From positions 16,049 through 80,048 of the forward strand of contig JAFRUI010000018.1 in assembly GCA_017438945.1 (NCBI GenBank): a stretch of DNA of 64,000 bases, in the 5' to 3' direction. Every line of letters starts with the position of its first letter. The first letter of the stretch is position 1. The stretch is from Bacteroidales bacterium (lineage in GTDB: Bacteria; Bacteroidota; Bacteroidia; Bacteroidales; WCHB1-69). Below are positions 2,760-39,041 of this stretch, piece after piece. Position numbers and translations under genes: made by a program. Under the pieces are notes generated by a model. The model was given only the letters and a program-made list of their open reading frames with translations. It searched no databases and was not told the origin of the DNA.

Positions 2760-3851
2760 TCAATTCCGTTTTATCTCGAAAATCTCGTGCGCGATGCCAT
2801 GCTCGCCCAATATCGCCCTCACTCGCGTCTCGTCAGTGTCGGAGATGAACACCTGCCCGAAATGCTCTCGCCCTACCATGTTCAACAGTTCCGTGATACG
2901 GGTACGGTCGAGTTTGTCGAAAATATCGTCCAACAGCAGGATCGGTTTGCGCTTGTTGAAGGCAAAAGCATAGTCGAACTGCGACAACCTTAACGCCAAG
3001 GAAAACGATTTCTGCTGCCCCTGAGACCCGAAATGCTTCACAGGCTGACCGTCAATGGTGAAGTCGTAATCATCCTTGTGTACGCCAAACGTCGTGAAAC
3101 CGCATTTGGAGTCCGCCGGAAAACTCTTCGCCAGACCATCTTCATAACGGGTTTCGGCAAGCTCGGACCGATATTGGATGTCCACCTCTTCCGATCCGTT
3201 TGAAAGCTGCCGGTAATGTTCCAAAAACATCGGACGGATGTTCTCGACAAACTGCCGCCGACGCTGATACAGCAAATCACCATCCTCTACAAGCTGCAAA
3301 TCGATTACCTGAAGCAACGAAAAATCCGCATGACCTGTCTCTTGCTGCTGGCGAAGCACGGCATTACGCTGCAAAAGCAATTTCTTGTAGTGAATAAGAT
3401 GCTGGAGATAAATTTTGTCAAACTGCGAGATAATCTTGTCGAAGAACTTGCGGCGCACCTCGTTGCCATCGTTGATGATGTCACTGTCGTAAGGCGACAC
3501 CATCACTACTGGGAACAGCCCCACGTGGTCGCTCAGTCGGTCGTATTCTTTCTTGTTGGCCTTTAACGATTTAGCTCCGTTTTTATACACACAACTCACC
3601 TGTGTGGTATTCCCAGATTCCTCATCCGAGAATTCCCCATGCAGTGCGAAAAAGTCTGTTCCCAAGCGTAGCGAACTCACGTCCTTCGCCGAAAAGCAAC
3701 TTTTCCCGAACGACAGGTAATGGATGGCATCCAGCAGGTTGGTCTTGCCGCTGCCGTTCGCCCCCACGATGCCGTTCACGTTGTCGTTGAACATGAAAGA
3801 GGCTTCGGTGTAGTTTTTGAAATTAGTGAGCTGAAGGGTTCGTAAGTACAT
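2760..3851 (-). CDS. recF: DNA replication and repair protein RecF
   Basis: 363 aa. MYLRTLQLTNFKNY.., Walker A GANGSGKTNLLDAI and Walker B-like LLLDDIFDKLD are present. Confidence 0.95.
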   Translation of the reverse strand: MYLRTLQLTNFKNYTEASFMFNDNVNGIVGANGSGKTNLLDAIHYLSFGKSCFSAKDVSSLRLGTDFFALHGEFSDEESGNTTQVSCVYKNGAKSLKANKKEYDRLSDHVGLFPVVMVSPYDSDIINDGNEVRRKFFDKIISQFDKIYLQHLIHYKKLLLQRNAVLRQQQETGHADFSLLQVIDLQLVEDGDLLYQRRRQFVENIRPMFLEHYRQLSNGSEEVDIQYRSELAETRYEDGLAKSFPADSKCGFTTFGVHKDDYDFTIDGQPVKHFGSQGQQKSFSLALRLSQFDYAFAFNKRKPILLLDDIFDKLDRTRITELLNMVGREHFGQVFISDTDETRVRAILGEHGIAHEIFEIKRN

Positions 3852-3860
3852 TCAAATTAT

Positions 3861-3941
3861 GAATTAAGAATTAAAAATTAAGAATTAAGAATCGAAATCC
3901 AATGGAAATCATTCTTAATTCTTAATTCTGAATTCTGAATT
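3861..3941. repeat. inverted tandem heptamer arrays (GAATTAA units) forming a long hairpin
   Basis: GAATTAAGAATTAAAAATTAAGAATTAAGAAT (3861-3892) pairs with ATTCTTAATTCTTAATTCTGAATTCTGAATT (3911-3941). It sits between the peptidase stop and the recF start. Confidence 0.7.
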
Positions 3942-9553: not shown

Positions 9554-10525
9554 ATGAATAACAAAGAGTTTAACAAACAATTATCTGCAGGAAACAACGG
9601 ATTCCTGCATTTGCTCATCAATCTTGCCTTGTTCGTGGTTTCCATTTGGATAGTGGTGAGATTAGCCAAACTCAACTGTATGTTGAATGCCGAAGGGGAG
9701 GTAACCCCTTGGATTCTGCTTCCCATTTGCATCGGTTTTCTGCTGCTTATCATCTGGATTCTTCACCTGTGCGGTTTCATGATCGTGCAACCCAACGAAT
9801 CACGGGTGCTCACCTTTTTCGGCAAGTACTCCGGCACGGCGAAACAGAACGGTTTTTTCTGGGTGAACCCATTCTACAGCAAAGAGAAGCTGTCGCTGAG
9901 AGCCAAAAATATGGACGTGGAGCCCATCAAGGTGAATGACAAGAACGGCAACCCCATCATGATCGGTCTGGTTTTGGTGTGGAAGATCAGCGACACCTAC
10001 AAAGCCTGTTTCGAAGTGGATTCCGACGTGCGCAGCACCATCACCGAAAACTCGATGAAGTCCGTCAAGAGCTTCGACTCGTTCGTGCGGGTGCAGAGCG
10101 ATGCCGCGCTGCGCAAGGTGGCGGGCATGTACGCATACGACAACATGGACCGCAACGACGAGGGTGTGACCCTGCGTTCCGGCGGCGAGGAAATCAACGA
10201 ACGTTTGGAATCCGAGCTGCGCAAACATCTGGAAATCGCGGGCATCGAGGTTGTGGAAGCCCGCATCAACTACTTGGCCTACGCCGCTGAAATCGCCAGC
10301 GTGATGCTGCGCCGCCAGCAAGCCGACGCCATCATCTCCGCCCGCGAAAAAATCGTGGAGGGTGCCGTCAGCATGGTCGATCTGGCCCTCAAGAAACTCT
10401 CCGCCGACAAAATCGTGGAACTTGACGAGGAACGCAAGGCTGCCATGGTCTCCAACCTCTTAGTCGTGCTCTGCGCCGACGAATCCGCTTCACCGGTCAT
10501 CAACACGGGAACACTGTATCAATAA
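9554..10525 (+). CDS. SPFH/band-7 domain membrane protein
   Basis: 323 aa. Two N-terminal TM helices are followed by a stomatin/prohibitin-like core (..FMIVQPNESRVLTFFGKY.., coiled-coil tail). Confidence 0.8.
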   Translation: MNNKEFNKQLSAGNNGFLHLLINLALFVVSIWIVVRLAKLNCMLNAEGEVTPWILLPICIGFLLLIIWILHLCGFMIVQPNESRVLTFFGKYSGTAKQNGFFWVNPFYSKEKLSLRAKNMDVEPIKVNDKNGNPIMIGLVLVWKISDTYKACFEVDSDVRSTITENSMKSVKSFDSFVRVQSDAALRKVAGMYAYDNMDRNDEGVTLRSGGEEINERLESELRKHLEIAGIEVVEARINYLAYAAEIASVMLRRQQADAIISAREKIVEGAVSMVDLALKKLSADKIVELDEERKAAMVSNLLVVLCADESASPVINTGTLYQ

Positions 10526-10545
10526 ACGAATACAATTCCCGTTTT

Positions 10546-10573
10546 GTAGAGACGCGCCATGGCACGTTTCTAC
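10546..10573. repeat. GTAGAGACG-type palindromic REP
   Basis: GTAGAGACGCGCCATGGCACGTTTCTAC is an imperfect palindrome. Related copies lie at 1278, 28107, 35069 and 50517. Confidence 0.75.
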
Positions 10574-10578
10574 AGGAC

Positions 10579-26896: not shown

Positions 26897-26974
26897 ACAT
26901 AATTTTCGATAATCGCGATGATGGCGTGAATGGGTTGTGGCGGGCACGTTCCGTTGCCCCCTTTGAACCCCGTC

Positions 26975-27050
26975 AGGGGTTCAATGTCTGTAGCCCGGTG
27001 CGGTTCCCCTCGATGTTCCGCAGAACCCCGTCATGGGTTCCCTGTCCGTA
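26975..27050. repeat. REP doublet (GAACCCCGTCAGGGGTTC .. GAACCCCGTCATGGGTTC)
   Basis: Two palindromic hairpins about 58 nt apart. The ~75-bp unit recurs at 27967-28037. Confidence 0.8.
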
Positions 27051-27199
27051 TGGGTTCCATCGATATTTTTAAATGCAACGAAACAAAACAACGCAGCATA
27101 TCGGAGATAAAATTTACAATTAATTGTAAATAAATATTTGATTATCAATATATTATAAAATTTTGTATTTTTGAGGCGAATTAAAAAAATAAAAAAAAT

Positions 27200-27661
27200 A
27201 TGGCAAATACATATTCTCAGATTTACCACCATTACATTTTCGCTGTACAACACAGACAGTGTCTTATCCAATCCGAATGGAAGGAAGAATTGTACAAATA
27301 CATGACGGGGTGCATCACCAATCACGGATGCAAACTGTTGAGCATTGGCGGGGTTGCAGATCATATCCATATTTTGACGGGTATGAACCCAGATGTTTCT
27401 TGTGCCACGTTGATGGCGGATGTGAAACGTAGTTCCACTTTGTGGATTAACAAGAAATTCTATCGCCCAGGTCGGTTTTCCTGGCAGAACGGGTACGGGG
27501 TTTTCAGCTACGCCAGATCCGCCATCCCGAATGTGGCGAAATATATTGAAAATCAGGTCCGGCATCACAAAAAGAAGACATTCCAGGAGGAATATGTCAA
27601 AATTCTAAATGATTTTGGCGTTGATTACGACGAACAATACATTTTCCATCCCGTGTTGTAA
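27200..27661 (+). CDS. Y1 (HUH) transposase, IS200-like / REP-associated tyrosine transposase (RAYT)
   Basis: 153 aa. The HUH motif (ADHIHIL) and catalytic-Tyr region (WQNGYGVFSY) are present, and the gene is flanked on both sides by REP hairpins. Confidence 0.8.
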   Translation: MANTYSQIYHHYIFAVQHRQCLIQSEWKEELYKYMTGCITNHGCKLLSIGGVADHIHILTGMNPDVSCATLMADVKRSSTLWINKKFYRPGRFSWQNGYGVFSYARSAIPNVAKYIENQVRHHKKKTFQEEYVKILNDFGVDYDEQYIFHPVL

Positions 27662-27704: not shown

Positions 27705-28037
27705 CCCCGAATGGGGATGTGACGAACGACTGTTGGGATTCGTTTCCACGGGCATGCAACCCCCACCGGGGTTGTGGCGGACGCGATGTGCAACCCGTTG
27801 CTACATACATGTAACCCCTAACGGGGTTATGCGGGCGCGCCGACACGTATCCCGCTACAGAGATGGATCCCCTACGGGGATGATGGCGGATTCATTCGCC
27901 GGAACCGTTGCCACGGATATGGATTTCCCTACGGAGATAACGGCGGGTTCGTTCCGTCATTCCCATGAACCCCGTCAGGGGTTCCATGTCTGTAGTGCGG
28001 TCCCTCACGATGTTCCGCAGAACCCCGTTAAGGGTTC
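27705..28037. repeat. array of REP hairpins (xCCCC-loop-GGGGx) in ~45-55-bp diverged units
   Basis: Hairpins lie at 27705-27716, 27757-27774, 27812-27829, 27867-27881, 27967-27984 and 28020-28037. Confidence 0.8.
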
Positions 28038-28106
28038 CATCACCATTTCCCCACCACAACCGCCATCCCCGCCACGAAGAACGGCAGCAGGAAGAAGATG
28101 ACGGCG

Positions 28107-28134
28107 TGTAGAGACGTGCCATGGCGCGTCTCCT
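28107..28134. repeat. GTAGAGACG-type palindromic REP
   Basis: TGTAGAGACGTGCCATGGCGCGTCTC is identical over 26 nt to the copy at 35069. It overlaps the stop codon of the 83-aa gene. Confidence 0.8.
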
Positions 28135-28384
28135 ATAGGGCGTTGCCCACGCGGTTGTCAAAGAGTTGCACCCGCGATTTGGTCCAGAAGAGTTTCGGGG
28201 GAACGTCCAACGCCCAATTCGTGAACCCGAGGATGAACCCCGCGAGCGCGAGCCCGCCCGCGAGGACATAGACGTGCCTCCCGATGCCGATGTCGCCGTA
28301 GGCGATTTCCGAGAGCAGAACTAACAGCCCGAAGAGGTTGGTGATGGGCGCGATTTTTTGGATGAGCCAGAGGAGGGCGGTCAT
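28133..28384 (-). CDS. small membrane protein (2 predicted TM), unknown family
   Basis: 83 aa with two hydrophobic stretches. It is the last ORF of the same-strand cluster, 19 nt after the preceding gene. Confidence 0.5.
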   Translation of the reverse strand: MTALLWLIQKIAPITNLFGLLVLLSEIAYGDIGIGRHVYVLAGGLALAGFILGFTNWALDVPPKLFWTKSRVQLFDNRVGNAL

Positions 28385-28403
28385 AATAATTGGGAATTTA
28401 CCA

Positions 28404-28763
28404 TCATTTTGCAGTTTTCAACAGTTGCATCACCGTTTTGACCCCATCAATCGTCACTTTGTTTCCATCGACGGCGGCCAAAATAAAGATGTAGTCATCG
28501 TTTCTTTCGGCAAAGTCTTCGCAACAGGTGATTTCCACCACCTCGTAATCCCAACCCATGTCCTTCACCGCAATTTCCGCAACGGATCCGACCAACGACA
28601 ACGACAGCGGGACACCACCATCTTTGTCAAAGAGCGTGACGGCCCACGTCGTGAACTGTTCGTCTTCATCGATGCGAAATATCCCGCCATGCTTCTTCAA
28701 CAACTCCAGGAGCTGGACATTCAACTTGCCACACGGGCCGGTATTTTCAAGGATTGTACTCAT
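28404..28763 (-). CDS. hypothetical cytoplasmic protein, unknown family
   Basis: 119 aa with no motif I recognise. It starts 7 nt after the upstream gene. Confidence 0.55.
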   Translation of the reverse strand: MSTILENTGPCGKLNVQLLELLKKHGGIFRIDEDEQFTTWAVTLFDKDGGVPLSLSLVGSVAEIAVKDMGWDYEVVEITCCEDFAERNDDYIFILAAVDGNKVTIDGVKTVMQLLKTAK

Positions 28764-28770
28764 TGAAGTC

Positions 28771-29010
28771 TCATAATTGTTTTACCGTCCAACCGTTGGC
28801 ATTTGTGATTTTAGAAGGCCTGCTGAAGCCGCTTCTCCATTTACAACCAGTCTGCTTCAAGAAATCATCAGCGGAAATACCGTTTGATTCGTTTGATTCA
28901 ACCACAAAGCTCCATTCTTCACTGGAACTTCTGACGGTGCTCCCGTCGGGCTTTTCTATCCACTGCAATGCAGACAATCCCTTTCCTGTTACTAAAAGTT
29001 TATATCTCAT
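28771..29010 (-). CDS. hypothetical small protein, unknown family
   Basis: 79 aa, in a visibly AT-richer stretch. Confidence 0.45.
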   Translation of the reverse strand: MRYKLLVTGKGLSALQWIEKPDGSTVRSSSEEWSFVVESNESNGISADDFLKQTGCKWRSGFSRPSKITNANGWTVKQL

Positions 29011-29128
29011 GATAATACGATTTTAAGTTGCCTACTCTTTTATGGATTTTCGGCTTCCTCCTTGATACTTTTCAAATACAAGTATAAACTACAAACAGGA
29101 ATGTATGCCTTGTCGAATACTTAACCAA

Positions 29129-29728
29129 CTAAATTTCAATGATGTAATATTTAGCTGGTACAGACGTGATTGGATCTGCTGCTTTATCTCTGTCCCAAAA
29201 GTTTGTTGAATTCCAAATCGCATTATAAGAGTTTTTGATTGTAAGCTGTTTCGGCCCTTTGATCGTAGGATTAGAAATTACACCTTGGATTGAAGTTCCG
29301 ACACGGAAATAGCTATAAATACCTTTGGTTTTTAATCCTTGTTTGGTGCAAAAATTCATATTATCGACAAGAGAAACCGCACAACCGCCATTAAAACCGA
29401 TATTTTTCAACTGCTCAATAAAACAAATATCTTCAACGAATTGGAACATTCTTCTTGGATATGCACCATTACGTGGAAACTTTAGTTCAATGGCGAACTT
29501 TTCGTTCTTGTCAAACACCGCAATGTCAATCTCTTGTTTTACAGTGGCTGTATTTATTCCAAAGAAGTTAGTGTTTCTCTCAAATTGCACACTGTAATTG
29601 GGACATTTATTGCGTAAGAATATGCCAAGTTCGTGCTGCAATGAATATTCATTATAGAGTTCGATTTTATGGCTGTACGCGTAACTGAAAAAATCGCTGA
29701 TGTAAACAGATAAATCTTGTGATGTCAT
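29129..29728 (-). CDS. PD-(D/E)xK nuclease-fold candidate
   Basis: The motif order is E (SLQHELG) .. D (QEIDIAVF) .. ExK (AIELKF), with 12 residues between the D and the ExK. ATG at 29728 chosen; a GTG at 29800 abutting the upstream stop is an alternative. Confidence 0.55.
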   Translation of the reverse strand: MTSQDLSVYISDFFSYAYSHKIELYNEYSLQHELGIFLRNKCPNYSVQFERNTNFFGINTATVKQEIDIAVFDKNEKFAIELKFPRNGAYPRRMFQFVEDICFIEQLKNIGFNGGCAVSLVDNMNFCTKQGLKTKGIYSYFRVGTSIQGVISNPTIKGPKQLTIKNSYNAIWNSTNFWDRDKAADPITSVPAKYYIIEI

Positions 29729-29800
29729 AATGATTTGAATTAAATTGATGAAATATGAATAAATAGATGCGTTTCTGTGGGATGTGCCCAAAACGCGCAC

Positions 29801-30148
29801 TTATTGTTTCGCCCTTGCTATCCCATAGACAATCATAATGAAAGTCAACACCAACAAACCTACTACAATGACGAAGGCAGGCGGGGTGAATTGCACGAAG
29901 GCATACACGAAACAGCAGACGAGCATGATGAGGGTGAATGCGCCGCCCAGTGCGGCAATGTTGCCGGAAGTGCGGGATTGTTCGAACCGGACACCCAAGG
30001 CGGTGGCCAACGGGATGAAGGTGGCGATGCCACCACCAATGCCCAAAAGCAGTTCCTGCCCTTCGGTCTTACAAAGGGCATACAAGGCATAGCCAATCAA
30101 TGCGCTGATGGCTAATGCAATAATGGTGGGAATAAGGTTTATTTTCAT
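29801..30148 (-). CDS. 4-TM small membrane protein
   Basis: 115 aa with four hydrophobic helices. It starts 7 nt after the upstream GYF gene. Confidence 0.65.
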   Translation of the reverse strand: MKINLIPTIIALAISALIGYALYALCKTEGQELLLGIGGGIATFIPLATALGVRFEQSRTSGNIAALGGAFTLIMLVCCFVYAFVQFTPPAFVIVVGLLVLTFIMIVYGIARAKQ

Positions 30149-30155
30149 ACTCTCG

Positions 30156-30542
30156 TTATTTTGGCTGGTTAAACGCTGGCGGTGCCAACAAAACTAATTT
30201 CAAAACTTCTGGCGTGTTTTCCACTGTCTGCCATTCGCTCATACCCGGCTTCCAGACGTAAGTGTCTTTGGTGATCTGTTTGGAGGAAATGAGTTTCATT
30301 ACTTCGGTTTCGGACAAAGGCCCGACGGAATTGCCGTTAATGACGACATAGAAAACTTGTGGAAGAGGTTGTGGCATTGGCGCAGCTTGCGAAGGCTGTG
30401 CCTGTGTCATCGGGTTCATCGTCCCCGGGATGTACATGCTCTGCATCGTTTGGTTCATTGTCTGAACCATCTGCTGGGCAACGGCCATACTCATACCGAA
30501 CTCAATTAGCCGGTCGATGGAGAAGAAATTGTTATTGTCCAT
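30156..30542 (-). CDS. GYF_2 (DUF4339) domain protein with Met/Gln- and Pro-rich N-terminal half
   Basis: 128 aa. FYVVINGNSVGPLSETEVMKLISSKQITKDTYVWKPGMSEWQTVENTPEV fits the GYF_2 pattern. Confidence 0.7.
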   Translation of the reverse strand: MDNNNFFSIDRLIEFGMSMAVAQQMVQTMNQTMQSMYIPGTMNPMTQAQPSQAAPMPQPLPQVFYVVINGNSVGPLSETEVMKLISSKQITKDTYVWKPGMSEWQTVENTPEVLKLVLLAPPAFNQPK

Positions 30543-30563
30543 ATTTCACTATTTTATTAAATG

Positions 30564-31961
30564 TTACGGCATTGGAGGGGTTGGAGGCATAGGCGGCGGA
30601 ACGGCTCCAAACAGATTGGCGAGTTCCTGTACGTTACCTGCAAACTCCCAGTTGGGCATCCCTTGCTTCCAAACATACGTTTGTGCAGTAAGTTGTCCGT
30701 TCTGCACCAATTGTTGCAACTGTTGCATGTTGTAGGGACCGAATTGTTGTCCATTGACAGAAACCAGATAAGCCACATTCACGGCACCAGGCATGGGTGG
30801 AGGTGTCATCTGTGGCTGTGCTTGTTGCTGTGGCTGTTGCGGCATGCTCGCTTGTTGCATCTGCTGCCCCATTCGATTCATCATATTCCCCATTTGGCCT
30901 CCCATAGCGCCACCCATTGCCATTCCCATCATCATCCCGGCAGGATTCATTCCGCCTACATTGCCATTCTCCAAATTCACTTGGCTCATCTCACCGAGAT
31001 TCTGTGCAGCAGTTGAGAGTACTTCAGTCTGTTTGTCTATGCTGTGAGCGGCAATATTTGCATTCTCTGTCTGCAGACGTTGCGCACGCTGAGCTTCTTC
31101 ACGCTGGATACGGAGCGACTCCTCCATATTTTCAGCATTAATACGCTGCATTTCCTGCATGTTCTTGAGGTTGATTTCTGTTTGTGTTTCTATGGTCTTG
31201 GTTTGCTGACCAGCAGTTATTTTACGCAACTCAAGATAACCGTCACTTTCCTTGTCGGGCTCGATGGCTGCTATATCCACAGCTTTCATAAATACGCCAA
31301 AATCGGTTTCCAATCTGGGCTTAAGATATTGAGATACAATATCATTGATTTCTAATATTTTCCGTTCCATCTGCAATACGGGAATCCCGTTGTCTTGTGG
31401 AACGTTGGTCACCACACCTTTCACATATTTCACTACAGCATCTTTAATTTGCTTTTTGAAATCCTCCAATTCGAAATTAATGAGGCGGTGCAGCTTTATG
31501 AACGCCTTGTAGTCCTGTATGTTGAACGTTAGAGTCCCCCTTACTGCCATCGGCACAGGATAGTCTAAAAAACGCGGATCAAAGACATCAAAGTAAGGCA
31601 CAGCGAATTTGACTTGAACAACTCCTGCCAGATTGATGTAATAGACCTCTGCTTGGAAAGGGGATGAACCTCCAAACGCTAACCCCACTATCTTGGTAAG
31701 TATGGGGAAGTTTGCCGTTTTTATGGTGTCATCGTATGGCCCAACGATAAAGTCTTCCATTGTGCCGTTATTTTGTTTATAGACAAAAACGGCGACCTCT
31801 CCATCTTTCACTCTGAGGCTGCTGCCATAGCGGATGGAATTCTCCTTCTTGGTGCTATTAGCTTCCTGTCCGGCAGGACGCCATTTCCAAATTAAATATT
31901 CTGGTTCATCACAGCGGATGACATCCATCAATCCGCCTTCTTTTCTGTTAAATAGGCCCAT
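30564..31961 (-). CDS. SPFH (Band_7_1 / COG4260, YdjI-like) protein with C-terminal GYF_2 domain
   Basis: 465 aa. The N-terminus ..DVIRCDEPEYLIWKWRP..GSSLRVKDGEVAVFV.. is followed by a coiled coil, a Met/Gly/Gln-rich segment, then AYLVSVNGQQFGPYNMQQLQQLVQNGQLTAQTYVWKQGMPNWEFAGNVQEL and a PPPMPPTPPMP tail. Confidence 0.8.
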   Translation of the reverse strand: MGLFNRKEGGLMDVIRCDEPEYLIWKWRPAGQEANSTKKENSIRYGSSLRVKDGEVAVFVYKQNNGTMEDFIVGPYDDTIKTANFPILTKIVGLAFGGSSPFQAEVYYINLAGVVQVKFAVPYFDVFDPRFLDYPVPMAVRGTLTFNIQDYKAFIKLHRLINFELEDFKKQIKDAVVKYVKGVVTNVPQDNGIPVLQMERKILEINDIVSQYLKPRLETDFGVFMKAVDIAAIEPDKESDGYLELRKITAGQQTKTIETQTEINLKNMQEMQRINAENMEESLRIQREEAQRAQRLQTENANIAAHSIDKQTEVLSTAAQNLGEMSQVNLENGNVGGMNPAGMMMGMAMGGAMGGQMGNMMNRMGQQMQQASMPQQPQQQAQPQMTPPPMPGAVNVAYLVSVNGQQFGPYNMQQLQQLVQNGQLTAQTYVWKQGMPNWEFAGNVQELANLFGAVPPPMPPTPPMP

Positions 31962-32041
31962 AGTTTCCCTTTTTAGATGATTTTACTGCTTTTGTTAAAC
32001 CCATACATATCAATCAACTTAATTGTCGGATATTTTCACAA

Positions 32042-33265
32042 TCAATATGATTCTATAATGCTGGCAATTTCTTTGATGACTTTTTTAGGTTTCCCCAATT
32101 CATCGTTTTTTGTGATTTCATCTTTATGAATATTCAAAAAACGTTCAGCTTCTTCTTTCTTGCCGCCTTCGCATAGGGATACTACTACATCTTTAATGTA
32201 TTTTCCATTATATTTCTCGTGGAAGTAAGCAGTTTGACAAATGCCTTTCGCTTTTTCATACTCACCATGATTAATGCAATAATCGTAGAGTTTTGTGGAA
32301 ATTATATCATCGTATTTTGCTTCTACAGCAGATGCGACTCGCATGGCATTGTCAAGATTCTCTTCTGATAGACAAGCATCGACGATAGAACCTGCCAGTT
32401 TTTTGTCGGTTTCATCAGATGCCAAAAACAACTTCACGGCTTCTTGAGTGTCTCCCGTTTTTAAAGCAGTGGTGATTTCTTTCGAACTTTCACTTTTCAC
32501 CTTTGAATCTTTTGAAGAGTAAGACAGGGTTATTGGAAGAATAATAGCCAATAAGACAATCCAGATAGCTATACCTATAATCAGCATCTTAGTTCTTTGA
32601 GATTTTGATTTCCACCATCCCATTTTTTTATCTTCCTCAAGAAAGGGAGCGAGATCTTTGTCATGAGGAAACAGCATGCGGGCTTTATCGATACACTCTT
32701 TGTATTTTGTTCTATACGCATCCGCATAGAGGCTTTGATTATCGCTCATCTTGGTTTTCATGGTTATGATGAACTCCATCAAATCCGCTTTTGTATTCGG
32801 AACTGGGAAGTTTCTGATTGCTGCATGAATCCTGGTATCATTTCCTTTCCCAGTAAAAACCCCAGCGTAAGTTTGTGTGATTTTTTTTAAAGTAGATTTA
32901 TCCTCATCTTCCTTGGTCATTTTGTCAAGCATCTCAGAGAATCTCCGAGAAGAAGAATTTGCCTCAATGTTTTCAAAAGCATACCCACATTCCGGACATA
33001 TTCCTTGATAGCTTTGCACAATTGCCCCGCAGGCAGGACATTTTTTCACATCGCCAAACTTGTTGCTTTTTGGTGCGGAGGAAGCCGCTTTCTCTTCTTC
33101 GGCTTTCTTCAGCTTCACCAACCGTGCGTCCAGCACCATCTCAAATTCATCCAAGTCCACTCCCAGTGTCTGGGCTTTCTTGAAAAGTACCTGTTTTTCC
33201 TTTTCGGTCAGTTCACCATCCGCCAAAGCGGCATCAATCAATTGTTCTAATTGTTCGTTGTACAT
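32042..33265 (-). CDS. TerB-like N-terminal hairpin + zinc ribbon + single TM + helical C-terminal domain protein
   Basis: 407 aa. Contains LIDAALADGELTEKEKQVLFKKA, CPACGAIVQSYQGICPECGY and the TM helix MLIIGIAIWIVLLAIILPITL. The stretch is AT-rich. Confidence 0.7.
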   Translation of the reverse strand: MYNEQLEQLIDAALADGELTEKEKQVLFKKAQTLGVDLDEFEMVLDARLVKLKKAEEEKAASSAPKSNKFGDVKKCPACGAIVQSYQGICPECGYAFENIEANSSSRRFSEMLDKMTKEDEDKSTLKKITQTYAGVFTGKGNDTRIHAAIRNFPVPNTKADLMEFIITMKTKMSDNQSLYADAYRTKYKECIDKARMLFPHDKDLAPFLEEDKKMGWWKSKSQRTKMLIIGIAIWIVLLAIILPITLSYSSKDSKVKSESSKEITTALKTGDTQEAVKLFLASDETDKKLAGSIVDACLSEENLDNAMRVASAVEAKYDDIISTKLYDYCINHGEYEKAKGICQTAYFHEKYNGKYIKDVVVSLCEGGKKEEAERFLNIHKDEITKNDELGKPKKVIKEIASIIESY

Positions 33266-33539
33266 AATAAATGGCTATATTTGAAATTCAATTGAATATT
33301 ATCACCTTTCCAAATCCCTTTCTTTTCCATCTGCAAAATAAAAACTTTCCCGTCAAACCGCCATAACCCATTTTGACCCATTTTAACGGGCTGTGCGCTT
33401 CATGGGATGACGCTTTCTTTCCCGTTCTTATCAGGGGTCAAAAATATACAATATATAATTATGATTATCAGATGTTTAGCAAAGTATTGCTTGGCGGATT
33501 GCACAGAATTAATGGGCAGAAGCGGCGGGATGTTATGAA

Positions 33540-33626
33540 TTTGCAGTTTGAACTATAAAAATAGTGGAGATTTTTGCAGTTTAAAATATAAAAATCGTAT
33601 GCTTTTTTGCAGTTTAAATATAAATT
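33540..33626 (+). repeat. three direct repeats (iteron-like) with exact 33-bp phasing
   Basis: TTTGCAGTTTGAACTATAAAAAT (33540), TTTGCAGTTTAAAATATAAAAAT (33573) and TTTGCAGTTTAAATATAAATT (33606). Confidence 0.85.
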
Positions 33627-34079: not shown

Positions 34080-34343
34080 TTAACTTTCCCCCATCCCGTT
34101 TATATATTCCCCAAGCTGCCCCTGCTGCTCGCGGTAGGAGCGGCTCAGGTCGGCGAAGAAGTCGTAGTCGAGGATTTGGGCGAGCTTCATCAGCGTGTTC
34201 GTGTCAATCCACTGGCGGGAGAAGATGAGATAGACGTTGTTGCGGTGGCAGCCTAACTGCTGCGCTAACCACGGCACCTTGATCCCCTTCCGGGTCACCA
34301 CCCGACGGATGACTTGCCCTATGTGCAGACCCTCTTCGCTCAT
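34080..34343 (-). CDS. small helix-turn-helix (XRE-like) DNA-binding protein
   Basis: 87 aa from MSEEGLHIGQVIRRVVTRKGIKVPWLAQQLGCHRNNVYLIFSRQ... The longer ORF-track N-terminus looks non-coding. Confidence 0.55.
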   Translation of the reverse strand: MSEEGLHIGQVIRRVVTRKGIKVPWLAQQLGCHRNNVYLIFSRQWIDTNTLMKLAQILDYDFFADLSRSYREQQGQLGEYINGMGES

Positions 34344-34620
34344 CGCTCTACCGTTTGTGACATACAAATGGCGTGGAATTTCGCTTGTCCGACTCTCGGG
34401 TTTCCACTCCCACACATCCGACAAGCACTCCACGCCGTTACAAACGGTCTGCGGAATCTGTCCTTGATGTGTGTTTGTCCCCTGTTTAACAGAGGAAGTG
34501 TGGAAAATGAGAGTCAAGGATAGCTGCAAACGCTATTTTATATGTTCGATTGTTTCTTTTCTGTTCTTTTTCTACTGTTTGTTTTGGTGACACTGACAAA
34601 CGGGACGAAATTCCGCCCGT

Positions 34621-35068: not shown

Positions 35069-35097
35069 TGTAGAGACGTGCCATGGCGCGTCTCTAC
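35069..35097. repeat. GTAGAGACG-type palindromic REP
   Basis: TGTAGAGACGTGCCATGGCGCGTCTCTAC, which shares 26 identical nt with the copy at 28107. Confidence 0.8.
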
Positions 35098-36442: not shown

Positions 36443-36450
36443 TACTTTTG
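36443..36450 (+). promoter_or_regulatory. -7 promoter box for the gene at 36472
   Basis: TACTTTTG lies 22 nt upstream of the ATG and is preceded by GGGTCAAAATGGG and TGACAAAC motifs. Confidence 0.5.
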
Positions 36451-36471
36451 CCGCCGAAAATCAGATTATAC

Positions 36472-37053
36472 ATGGACGACAACGACAAAATCTATATCGA
36501 ACACCTGAAAACCCTTCTTTGCGAGGCCTTGGAACGGCAGATGAACCGCTCCTCCGACTTCGTGTTCCTGCAGGCCTACATCTTCGAGCGCACCCGCGAG
36601 AACATCGGCCTCAACACGCTGAAACGGATCTGGAACTATGGAAACACGCCCGTAGCCCCACGTATCTTCACGCTGGATGTTCTGTCCAAAGCCCTCGGCT
36701 ACCGCAATTTCGAGGACATGAAACGCTTCTACGGCGATGAAGGTACAGACTCTTCCGACAAGGTGCTCGGCAAGGTGGTGAGCAGTCAGGATTTGCGCCC
36801 GGGCGACCGCGTGACGCTCTGCTGGGATCCCGGCCGCCGCTGCACCGTGGAATACCTCGGCAGCAACGCCTACCGCGTAGTCAGCAGCGAACGCACCAAG
36901 CTGAAACCCGGCAACACCTTCCAGACCGCCTTCTTCGCCACCGGCTCCCCCCTCATCCTCTCCAACCTCGTCCAAGACGACTCCTTCGCCACCCTCTACG
37001 AAATCGGCCGCAAATCCGGCGTGACACAATTGACGGTGGAAACCGCGAAATAA
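36472..37053 (+). CDS. hypothetical protein (helical N-terminal half, beta-rich GC-rich C-terminal half)
   Basis: 193 aa from the ATG at 36472 (the track start at 36448 is TTG). No family recognised. Confidence 0.6.
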   Translation: MDDNDKIYIEHLKTLLCEALERQMNRSSDFVFLQAYIFERTRENIGLNTLKRIWNYGNTPVAPRIFTLDVLSKALGYRNFEDMKRFYGDEGTDSSDKVLGKVVSSQDLRPGDRVTLCWDPGRRCTVEYLGSNAYRVVSSERTKLKPGNTFQTAFFATGSPLILSNLVQDDSFATLYEIGRKSGVTQLTVETAK

Positions 37054-37176: not shown

Positions 37177-37211
37177 GCTAACTACTAACTACTAACTGCT
37201 AACTGTTAATC
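37177..37211. repeat. tandem heptamer array ([AG]CTAACT)
   Basis: GCTAACTACTAACTACTAACTGCTAACTGTTAATC overlaps the kinase stop codon at 37199-37201. Confidence 0.8.
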
Positions 37212-38986
37212 GCTTCTATCCTCTTGAACTTTCCCCACACATCGTGTTTCCGGTACTTCTCCACCGACTGGGCGGGCACGTACAGCACCGCGCTGTCGGG
37301 TATGCCGTACAGGGAGTTCGGCAGCATGGTGGGCGGCTCCACACATCGGACAATCATGGTTTCCAGCGATTTGTTGTCGTTGAAGGCGTAGCTCTCAATG
37401 TGCTTCACACCACTGCCAATGTCCACATCTCGTAAATAATTGCAATATGAAAAACTGTACGAACCGATGAGTTCTGTGTGGTCAGGTATGACAATATGCT
37501 CAAGGCGGCTTGCATAGAAGGCCCCGTGGGAAATCTTTCGCAATGAATCGGGGAAATGAAAGTCTCGGAGATTGTATGAATAGACCGCAAATTCGTGGGG
37601 CAGTTCCCGTATATGGTTTGGGAGTTCAATTTCTTCCAGCCACTCCATATCGATGAACAAGCGTGGCGGCAAAACATAGACCGAATCATCCACGATGGCT
37701 TTTTTTAAGGAATTGCATCGATAGAAAAACTGGTTGCCCAGATTGGAAAGAGGGCCCGTCGTGCAGTCAAGTGCTTTCCAAACGAGGACAGCCAGAGAAT
37801 GACAGTCATTGAAAGCATTGGACTCCAAAACTTTAAGAGATCGCGGAATGACTAAAGTGTCTGATAACATATTGCAACATGAAAATGCCCCACATCCGAT
37901 TCGTTCAAGACCTTCAGAAAAAACAATATGCGTAAGGTTGGAACAATTGTCGAAGGCGTTGGAATCCAGTTCGGTGACACGATAGCTGACTCCTCGGCAT
38001 CGGATTCGCGAAGGGATGACCATATCGCCAGAAGGGGCGTTGGGGATATCGTGCCAGCTTCTCGCATTGCTGGGACATACGAAGGCCACCGTGCGGTGCC
38101 AGTGCGACAGCACCTTGGCATAGACCGTCTGCCCGGAGTCTAACGTGACAGGGAATTTCTTGCCGTTCGGGTGCATCCACCAGCAGAAGAGACCGACTAT
38201 GACCACGGGCAGCAACCACAACCACCATCGCGGTCGCATCAGCTTTGCCAAAGCCGCCACCGACTGCGGACGTTTGTTGGGGTCGGGGCGTTGCGCACGG
38301 CGGACGGCTCGACCGTAACGGTACGGGAACATCCGCTTCAGCAGGCCCCCCAAGGCGTAGATGTCGCTGCGGTGGTCGGCGACCTGCCCAGCCAGTTGCT
38401 CGGGCGCGGCGTACTTGCGCGTGCCGCCTGTCTGCCGGAAGGCGAAGCCGCTGTTGTCGGAAAGCCCGAAGTCGATGATCTTGGCAGTCAGCCCGTCTTT
38501 GGTAATCAGAATGTTGGAAGGTTTCAGGTCAAGATGCCAGATCTGCCGTTCGTGGCAGTAGGCCATGGCGTCCAGAATCTGCCGGAAGATCCGTTTGCGG
38601 GCAGCAGCGGACGGTCGCGTGGCCAGCCATTCGTCAAGACTTTGGCCATCCACGTACTCCATCACAATGCAGAGCCCAACCTTAGTATCCTCCTCCAAGC
38701 TGTTCACCCGCACGATGTGGGGGTGGTCGAGCTGCACCCCGATCTGGTACTCCTTGGAGAGATACTCGCGCATAGCGGGATCGTCGCGATACTCGGGCGC
38801 AAGACCTTTCAGCACGTAGTAACGGCCGAAACGACGGGCACGGTAGAGTACATTGCCCGGCTGCCGGCTCCGCACAGGCAACTTCTCGTAACCGGAGAAC
38901 TCCGCCGAAAGAGCATCCAAGGAACCCGAAATGGCCCCTGAAGCATAATAATACTCCTCGCGCACGTTTTTATCTGTATCTTTCAT
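37199..38986 (-). CDS. Hanks-type Ser/Thr protein kinase - TM - BspA-type leucine-rich-repeat ectodomain
   Basis: Contains HLDLKPSNIL, IIDFGLS and YAAPEQ, then the TM helix WWLWLLPVVIVGLFCWW, then repeated ..F..C..L..I.IP..V..I...AF.. units. Confidence 0.85.
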   Translation of the reverse strand: MKDTDKNVREEYYYASGAISGSLDALSAEFSGYEKLPVRSRQPGNVLYRARRFGRYYVLKGLAPEYRDDPAMREYLSKEYQIGVQLDHPHIVRVNSLEEDTKVGLCIVMEYVDGQSLDEWLATRPSAAARKRIFRQILDAMAYCHERQIWHLDLKPSNILITKDGLTAKIIDFGLSDNSGFAFRQTGGTRKYAAPEQLAGQVADHRSDIYALGGLLKRMFPYRYGRAVRRAQRPDPNKRPQSVAALAKLMRPRWWLWLLPVVIVGLFCWWMHPNGKKFPVTLDSGQTVYAKVLSHWHRTVAFVCPSNARSWHDIPNAPSGDMVIPSRIRCRGVSYRVTELDSNAFDNCSNLTHIVFSEGLERIGCGAFSCCNMLSDTLVIPRSLKVLESNAFNDCHSLAVLVWKALDCTTGPLSNLGNQFFYRCNSLKKAIVDDSVYVLPPRLFIDMEWLEEIELPNHIRELPHEFAVYSYNLRDFHFPDSLRKISHGAFYASRLEHIVIPDHTELIGSYSFSYCNYLRDVDIGSGVKHIESYAFNDNKSLETMIVRCVEPPTMLPNSLYGIPDSAVLYVPAQSVEKYRKHDVWGKFKRIEAINS

Positions 38987-38994
38987 AGAAGAGG

Positions 38995-39002
38995 CAAAAG
39001 TA
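38995..39002 (-). promoter_or_regulatory. -7 promoter box for the kinase gene (near-leaderless)
   Basis: TACTTTTG on the minus strand, 9 nt upstream of the ATG at 38986. Confidence 0.4.
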
Positions 39003-39041
39003 CACATTTTTCAATAACACGAGACCAATCCCTATTTTTTG

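Follow-up and report, generated by a model that had tools for sequence, protein, structure and literature searches.

The window analysed here, a 64,000-nucleotide (nt) stretch of contig JAFRUI010000018.1 from a Bacteroidales bacterium, contains a cluster of eight open reading frames (ORFs), A–H, on its minus strand. Four of them form a conserved operon with the order A-B-(C)-D, which encodes a membrane protein with a zinc ribbon (A), a soluble SPFH protein ending in a GYF_2 domain (B), an optional GYF_2-only protein (C), and a small protein with four transmembrane (TM) segments (D). The initial annotation of this DNA had placed all eight ORFs correctly and had grouped them into one system. The grouping stands for A-B-(C)-D and falls for E–H, which are absent from 43 of the 45 loci compared. 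We consider it rather likely that the cluster consists of three independent units: a membrane SPFH scaffold of A, B, C, and D that would be a counterpart of YdjG, YdjH, and YdjI of Bacillus subtilis, the solo gene E, and the F-G-H cassette.

Conservation and architecture of the A-B-(C)-D operon

Eighty genomic loci with relatives of B were fetched, and A–H were located in them by tblastn. All flanking ORFs were clustered in the 45 loci whose B is at least 39% identical to that of the window. The only families recurring across these 45 loci are B (45), D (38), A (36), and C (21), and wherever members appear, the A-B-(C)-D order on one strand is constant. When contig ends are allowed for, A was found in 35 of the 38 loci that could be assessed, and D in 37 of 43. 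The neighbors of B always include a membrane protein with a zinc ribbon. In the three loci where the A family is missing, the gene immediately upstream of B codes for a different protein with an N-terminal zinc ribbon, which has TM segments of its own or is followed by a small TM protein. One locus scored as lacking D has an unrelated 116-residue gene with four TM segments in the D position. Three independently chosen A-family proteins are each encoded directly upstream of genes for a Band_7_1-GYF_2 protein, a GYF_2 protein, and a 114- or 115-residue protein. A-B-(C)-D is a conserved operon; of the order A-B-C-D(-E) considered initially, A-B-(C)-D is kept across genomes and E is not.

The arrangement extends in part to Band_7_1-GYF_2 relatives that are 25–28% identical to B. 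In an Alistipes genome and a metagenome-assembled genome of Ignavibacteriaceae, the order is zinc-ribbon protein, B, and protein with four TM segments. In Maribacter, Tenacibaculum, and Parachryseolinea, the gene after B encodes a protein of about 360 residues with a double zinc ribbon and a C-terminal TM segment, similar to YdjG. Profile comparison detected no homology between the D family and the four-TM proteins beside distant B relatives; what is conserved there is the position of a four-TM protein. The operon is hosted by gut and rumen Bacteroidales, Treponema, and Firmicutes-like contigs, and is widespread in gut and rumen Bacteroidota. Band_7_1-GYF_2 proteins form more than 8000 clusters at 90% identity, which is a lower bound.

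The features of the core operon, in window coordinates and all on the minus strand, are as follows.

33439–33446, minus strand: candidate -7 promoter box of the Bacteroidetes type, TATTTTTG, located 174 nt upstream of A
32042–33265, minus strand: A, 407 residues, putative anchor or sensor
33077–33265, minus strand: A residues 1–63, TerB-like N-terminal helices
32966–33049, minus strand: A residues 73–100, zinc ribbon CxxC-x10-CxxC, followed by a helical linker
32519–32599, minus strand: A residues 223–249, TM helix as predicted by AlphaFold2 (AF2); hydropathy gives 227–245
32048–32491, minus strand: A residues 259–406, TPR-like C-terminal domain
30564–31961, minus strand: B, 465 residues, soluble SPFH protein
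31260–31847, minus strand: B residues 39–234, Band_7_1 SPFH domain, followed by a helical or coiled-coil region and a Met/Gly/Gln-rich linker
30621–30770, minus strand: B residues 398–447, GYF_2 domain, with a proline-rich stretch before it and a proline-rich tail after it
30156–30542, minus strand: C, 128 residues, GYF_2-only paralogue of the C-terminal part of B, optional operon member
30207–30350, minus strand: C residues 65–112, GYF domain
29801–30148, minus strand: D, 115 residues, small protein with four TM segments, conserved last gene of the core operon

The domain composition of B proposed initially, an SPFH head of the Band_7_1 type, a coiled coil, a Met/Gly/Gln-rich segment, and a GYF_2 domain, is borne out. 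The Band_7_1 domain (PF13421) is matched with E = 2.7e-22 and 79.9 bits (cutoff 24), and the GYF_2 domain (PF14237) with E = 1.6e-18 and 66.6 bits (cutoff 25.8). Residues 397–460 of B also match the solved structure of the GltJ GYF domain (7z3c, E = 1.6e-4). The proline-rich stretches beside the GYF domain read QMTPPPMPGA and AVPPPMPPTPPMP. Hydropathy reveals no hydrophobic or TM segment in B, and the sequence contains no CxxC pairs; its C-terminal end is a GYF_2 domain and not a zinc ribbon. Protein C is, as proposed, a second GYF_2 protein (E = 5e-16, 58.6 bits, cutoff 25.8). Protein D has the four hydrophobic segments ascribed to it; it matches no Pfam family over threshold, its sole match being a weak one to DUF4126 (1e-3), and does not match TPM_phosphatase. 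The ratio of nonsynonymous to synonymous substitution rates (dN/dS) is 0.05 for B, 0.05 for C, and 0.05–0.15 for B, C, and D together, which indicates strong purifying selection. Scans of all eight cluster proteins against NCBIfam, PHROGs, and PADLOC returned nothing significant.

The N-terminal part of protein A had been described as a TerB-like hairpin and a zinc ribbon. In A itself, both are below the Pfam gathering scores (Zn_ribbon_3, 1.6e-5; TerB, 3e-4), and only positions 78–114 of the approximately 118 positions of the TerB profile (PF05099) align, with 21.5 bits against a cutoff of 24.4. Across the A family, the description recurs: 2480 representative clusters were recovered with the N-terminal 115 residues as the query, and among 113 representatives, Zn_ribbon_3 is found in 73, DUF533 in 44, and TerB in 20, with a best TerB E-value of 1.3e-9. 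"TerB-like bihelical module" is a safe description of the N-terminus of A as judged from these profiles. The module has about 2500 representative clusters. In the family alignment, the first approximately 105 residues are almost invariant, the remainder falls to 40–50% identity, and short forms of about 240–270 residues may be devoid of the C-terminal domain. Some loci contain tandem A paralogues.

The AF2 model of A has a predicted local distance difference test (pLDDT) score of 84.7 overall, rising beyond 93 in the C-terminal domain. From the N-terminus onward, it consists of three helices, the ribbon, a helical linker, the TM helix, and a helical-repeat domain, in agreement with the single TM helix and helical C-terminal domain expected from the initial annotation. 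Foldseek matches the C-terminal domain to TPR proteins, weakly. Because the residues before the TM helix are richer in Lys and Arg than those after it (4.9 versus 2.6), the charge distribution suggests that the N-terminus of A is cytoplasmic and the TPR-like domain periplasmic.

The genes are closely spaced, with gaps of 80 nt (A–B), 21 nt (B–C), 7 nt (C–D), 118 nt (E–F), 7 nt (F–G), and 19 nt (G–H), as listed in the initial annotation. GC content is 35–43% in A, about 35% in E, 42–51% in B–D, and 53–59% in H, compared to 55–60% in neighboring genes. The AT-richness noted for A, E, and F is real (35–43% GC versus 55–60% for flanking genes). The canonical TAnnTTTG box occurs once upstream of the cluster on the minus strand, at 33439–33446, and we infer that it is the promoter of A; the motif is enriched in the window, with 63 observed occurrences versus 31 expected. 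A scan for sigma-70 promoters and terminators was discarded and replaced by TAnnTTTG, as it gave no excess over shuffled sequences and its model is unsuited to Bacteroidota. Farther upstream, between A and a divergent HTH_26 gene (34080–34529), three direct repeats with 33-nt spacing (33540–33620) each carry AAACTGCAAA on the minus strand and may be operator sites. The sequence AAACTGCAAAA is present also at the G–H junction, at approximately 28405–28416.

Several loci carry additional genes within or next to the operon. A same-strand gene for a protein of about 190–270 residues lies between A and B in L015 (7363–7992), L017, L022, L029, L035, L050, L051, and L099 (1016–1702). The L015 gene has no Pfam or PADLOC match, and a counterpart is not present in the window. 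In 4 of the 45 loci (L030 at 3081–3875, L013, L021, and L051), D is followed on its own strand by a gene for a voltage-gated-type ion channel (Ion_trans). The single "phage" match of B, MT835670, is an unverified contig with the order zinc-ribbon protein, B, zinc-ribbon protein; judged from sequence alone, its ORFs look like those for an ABC transporter and a response regulator.

Gene E and the F-G-H cassette

The second half of the cluster is composed of the following features.

29129–29728, minus strand: E, 199 residues from an ATG start, stand-alone protein with a predicted PD-(D/E)xK fold, outside the conserved operon
29129–29800, minus strand: E read from a GTG start, 223 residues
29029–29063, minus strand: DUF805b RNA motif (Rfam RF02914, cis-regulatory), in the E–F gap, ending 18 nt before the ATG of F
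28771–29010, minus strand: F, 79 residues, lineage-specific, no known family, dN/dS 0.08
28404–28763, minus strand: G, 119 residues, lineage-specific, no known family, dN/dS 0.06–0.12
28133–28384, minus strand: H, 83 residues, two hydrophobic segments, no known family, dN/dS 0.15–0.32

All homologues of E begin with an MTSQDL-like sequence at the position equivalent to the ATG at 29728, which is therefore the start codon. E is thus 199 residues long, and of the two D–E gaps considered initially, 72 nt is the real one, and the 0-nt gap given by the GTG start is not.

The call of a PD-(D/E)xK-like nuclease fold for E has gained support, because the structural model is confident and its structural matches are almost all PD-(D/E)xK proteins. 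Residues E33, D68, E81, and K83 do not vary among 38 sequences of the E family. In the AF2 model (pLDDT 96.4), D68 is located in strand 66–72, and E81 and K83 in strand 77–83. Foldseek searches against the PDB gave AF1548, Hjc, RecU, MGME1, and McrC, all weakly (E-values 0.008–0.1), and the best match in BFVD is a haloviral PD-(D/E)XK nuclease (1.4e-3, probability 1.00, TM-score 0.55). The named top matches are almost all PD-(D/E)xK proteins, with coverage restricted to the N-terminal approximately 90–120 residues. By its motif and its predicted restriction-endonuclease-like α-β-β-β-α-β fold, E belongs to the PD-(D/E)xK superfamily. It resembles archaeal Hjc, RecU, and AF1548 in the core α-β fold and the E...D...ExK motif (E33, D68, E81, K83) and differs from them in an added β-rich C-terminal half (residues ~145–198) and in the lack of detectable sequence similarity to any entry in Pfam, PADLOC, PHROG, NCBIfam, or the PDB.

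The genomic distribution of E is that of a solo gene. Its family contains approximately 256 clusters and has no conserved partner gene, its homologues elsewhere are single genes amid housekeeping genes, and it was not found in phage and plasmid collections. With a dN/dS of 0.26–0.67, E evolves faster than its neighbors. Of the 45 loci, the two closest ones, L011 and L012 (94% identity in B), are the only ones with E, F, G, and H, and F or G is sometimes missing even there. F is found only in L011 and contigs of the same species.

F, G, and H are genuine genes (dN/dS 0.06–0.32), and profile searches, in line with the initial annotation, assign none of them to a known family; the two TM helices attributed to H correspond to two hydrophobic segments. 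The 3' end of H was considered as possible repeat DNA and rejected: the window has no repeat there beyond a palindrome past the stop codon, and H is under purifying selection.

The E–F gap, listed initially as 118 nt, contains a DUF805b RNA motif that had been overlooked (52.4 bits, gathering score 35.6). The motif is also present after E in L011 (10905–10939) and L012 (10902–10936), and 21–22 nt ahead of other genes in L037 (11022–11056) and L093 (2814–2848). In L013, it occurs twice (9849–9885 and 10414–10449) in the stretch that separates B from C, into which three small genes have been inserted, one of them lipoprotein-like and two with hydrophobic stretches as far as their sequences tell. 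None of the scanned genes downstream of the RNA (F, G, H, and the DUF6591 gene of L037) encodes a DUF805 protein. The RNA marks small-gene cassettes in and around the operon, since it precedes small genes in relatives, and it looks like a portable leader for such cassettes in these Bacteroidales.

A decayed copy of the locus was found in a related organism (metagenomic locus L093, 3508–5651; also L094). The L093 remnants comprise the first 16 codons of A, the last approximately 24 codons of C, and a frameshifted D, together with intact E (60%), G (82%), and H (76%). E–H can persist without an intact core in this lineage, as L093 retains E, G, and H and has no intact A–D.

Proposed function of the cluster, and its surroundings

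By analogy, we propose protein–protein contacts, a topology, and a physiological role for the scaffold. B probably oligomerizes through its helical region, as other SPFH proteins do, and A and D probably tether it to the inner membrane on the cytoplasmic side, where it likely docks on the TerB-like helices and zinc ribbon of A. For the GYF_2 domains of B and C, the probable ligands are the proline-rich stretches flanking them, and the assembly would thereby be cross-linked or gated. The variable, putatively periplasmic TPR-like domain of A could couple the scaffold to the envelope, and the tandem A paralogues fit the idea of exchangeable sensors with a common docking module. The scaffold may function as the Bacteroidota counterpart of YdjG, YdjH, and YdjI in envelope stress or membrane organization, with no linked pspA. 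We hypothesize that E, a fast-evolving solo gene that is mobile in its own right, landed downstream of D in this lineage, and that F-G-H is a lineage-specific small-gene cassette behind its DUF805b RNA leader.

Several observations weigh against this division into three units and its YdjGHI-like scaffold. The sole canonical promoter box is located upstream of A, and read-through into E–H is possible. L093 retains E, G, and H beside a frameshifted D with A–C largely deleted, so that the linkage of E–H to D persists within the lineage. A is only 48% identical between close relatives whose B is 94% identical, and the divergence of A, together with an insertion-prone upstream flank that includes AbiE genes, is a pattern shared by conflict loci. 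Moreover, D and YdjH are not homologous, and A has just the zinc ribbon in common with YdjG, which makes the analogy with YdjGHI an architectural one.

It is rather unlikely that A-B-(C)-D is instead a true Psp-type module, in which B would act like YdjI and recruit an ESCRT-III-like PspA/IM30 protein, encoded elsewhere, to the damaged membrane. The Band_7_1 match of B is clear and speaks for such a function. However, the cluster lacks pspA, as the initial annotation had remarked, and the gene is absent from the 25 most frequent neighbor families of the 45 loci, a survey in which families seen at a single locus may be hidden. Furthermore, the SamGHI (YdjGHI) proteins have a developmental role in B. 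subtilis that is independent of PspA (bioRxiv 10.64898/2026.02.06.704340).

The initial annotation likened the cluster to defence or abortive-infection loci. In such a system, a complex of the SPFH, TerB, and GYF proteins would sense envelope damage by phage and release or activate E, with F–H as accessory or immunity proteins. We regard this as quite improbable, even though the motif of E and its predicted fold are intact, E outpaces its neighbors with a dN/dS of up to 0.67, E and A are AT-rich, and close relatives have exchanged A. No effector domain is present in the conserved core, the putative effector and F–H are missing from nearly all operon loci, E is a solo gene elsewhere, and F–H have an RNA leader of their own. 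The eight proteins match no model in PADLOC-DB v2.0; C–H gave no hits at all, and the best partial matches are PDC-S48 over 49 residues of A (1.2e-4) and LeoBC on the coiled coil of B (1.7e-3).

The flank upstream of A is variable between strains, which is in favor of a defence locus. Strains of the same species have either a helix-turn-helix gene and a PDDEXK_2 gene there, or AAA_14 with or without AbiEii. An AbiEi gene lies near the operon in L011, and L012 has a 96%-identical copy. The 140 nearest neighbors of the operon in 44 genomes are nonetheless heterogeneous, the most frequent being AAA_14/DUF4143 proteins (6), Ser/Thr kinases (4), and ion channels (4), and contain no recurrent defence content. 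There is local flux around A, yet no consistent defence island around the whole operon, because the upstream stretch varies, A diverges, and the neighbors are heterogeneous. For annotation, the lesson is that an AT-rich patch in which a nuclease-fold gene and orphan small genes adjoin a membrane scaffold is not, in this case, a defence system.

In L001 (4561–8075) and L007, a 3.5-kb same-strand insertion is located between the putative promoter and the start of A (between window positions 33284 and 33323). It codes for a 214-residue lipoprotein and a 940-residue protein with an N-terminal signal-like hydrophobic segment. Apart from a weak LPAM_1 match of the lipoprotein, neither protein has a Pfam or PADLOC match, and a link of the two inserted genes to the system was considered and rejected.

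The cluster had also been described as bracketed by identical repetitive extragenic palindromic (REP) copies. The two copies listed here are indeed identical.

28107–28132, strand not assigned: 26-nt REP-like palindrome TGTAGAGACGTGCCATGGCGCGTCTC, directly after the stop codon of H
35069–35094, strand not assigned: second identical copy, 1.8 kb upstream of A

They do not form a pair of element ends: a third, near-identical copy is located at 10545–10574 of the window, and the palindrome is an element that is REP-like and dispersed. Just downstream of the cluster, at 27200–27661 on the plus strand, a Y1_Tnp (IS200/RAYT-like) gene is flanked by repeats of about 100 nt (26939–27057 and 27942–28054), which contain GAACCCC-GTCAGGGGTTC hairpins distinct from the 26-nt palindrome.

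Two further neighbors lie beyond the upstream flank. The earlier reading of the 602-residue ORF at 37199–39007 (minus strand) has been corrected to a Ser/Thr kinase fused to BspA-type leucine-rich repeats, and a protein of about 190–200 residues with no known family is encoded at 36448–37053 (plus strand). Both recur within a few kb of the operon in L011–L015, L017, L022, L031, L051, L098, and L100, in genomes with 56–94% identity in B, with variable position and strand. Their recurrence could reflect synteny or a functional link.

A further reading, in which A-B-(C)-D is a general envelope-damage sensor, its invariant docking module and its GYF/proline-rich adaptors recruit E and F-G-H as lineage-specific cargo, and the whole is a modular platform for abortive infection or defence with A paralogues as exchangeable periplasmic sensors, appears more improbable still than the eight-gene defence locus. 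Participation of the operon in a motility or secretion machine of Bacteroidota, with a zinc-ribbon/GYF switch like that of Myxococcus GltJ, is highly improbable: B and C weakly match the NCBIfam model gliding_GltJ, the GYF domain of B matches structure 7z3c, and zinc ribbon and GYF cooperate in GltJ (PMC11135422), but the gliding_GltJ matches span the GYF domain only (22–28 bits, cutoff 450), the hosts are gut and rumen Bacteroidales, Treponema, and Firmicutes-like contigs, and no gliding or type IX secretion genes recur beside the operon in the 45 loci.

Comparison with known SPFH and GYF systems

The closest counterpart of the operon that we propose as a scaffold is the pspA-ydjG-ydjH-ydjI (samGHI) operon of B. 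subtilis, and the comparison with ydjG-ydjH-ydjI drawn in the initial annotation is apt. YdjI, a Band_7_1 protein without a TM segment, needs YdjG and YdjH to reach the membrane, where it recruits PspA (PMC8581546); the requirement for YdjG and YdjH has also been described in the study of the developmental role of SamGHI (bioRxiv 10.64898/2026.02.06.704340). YdjG is composed of two zinc ribbons and a TM helix, YdjH contains a TPM domain, and YdjI has a Band-7 domain and a C-terminal zinc ribbon (PMC11237479). Both operons place a TM-less Band_7_1 protein beside a single-pass zinc-ribbon protein and a second membrane protein, and B, like YdjI, has a low-complexity linker and a small C-terminal adaptor domain.

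B ends in GYF_2 and not in a zinc ribbon, and so departs from the COG4260 architecture. YdjG has two ribbons and an NTF2-like domain, whereas A has one ribbon after a TerB-like module and a TPR-like domain that is probably periplasmic. YdjG-like double-ribbon partners do occur beside distant homologues of B. In place of the TPM-domain protein YdjH, the operon encodes the 115-residue D with its four TM segments, the GYF-only protein C is often extra, and pspA is missing. The operon appears to resemble YdjGHI in its workings but lacks most features of membership, namely pspA, the C-terminal zinc ribbon of the SPFH protein, the TPM domain, and the double-ribbon/NTF2 partner. It is best regarded as the Bacteroidota version of a Band_7_1 module that a zinc-ribbon protein presumably anchors. 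It may represent a natural PspA-free YdjGHI/SamGHI, in which a lone anchored SPFH scaffold and the cooperation of GYF and zinc ribbon can be studied.

The arrangement of SPFH proteins with NfeD partners (stomatin/QmcA with YbbJ, FloT with YuaF) is similar in pairing an SPFH gene with one for a small multi-pass membrane protein. However, D has no soluble OB-fold domain, profile searches detected no NfeD match in D or any other cluster protein, and B, a protein of the Band_7_1 type, does not itself carry a membrane anchor.

Proline-rich sequences are the ligands of bacterial GYF domains, and a zinc ribbon is adjacent in 44% of bacterial GYF proteins (PMC11135422). GltJ of the Myxococcus Agl-Glt machinery likewise combines a bacterial GYF domain and a zinc ribbon at the cytoplasmic face with proline-rich ligands at hand. 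In GltJ, the two domains share one polypeptide and there is no SPFH domain, and MglA and AglZ have no counterpart here.

Architectures combining SPFH with GYF, and zinc ribbon with GYF and TPR, together with proline-rich flanks and TM-protein neighbors, were noted in 2007 (Balaji and Aravind, PMC2034487). B is an SPFH-GYF protein with proline-rich flanks and TM neighbors, and zinc ribbon, GYF, and TPR are all represented in the operon. In contrast to the 2007 description, the zinc ribbon and TPR are located on the separate membrane protein A, and the A-B-(C)-D order and the A and D families are absent there. Our literature searches found no description of the A-B-(C)-D operon. The parts of the operon and its logic are already known; new are the A family, the D family, the optional GYF-only protein C, and the conserved gene order.

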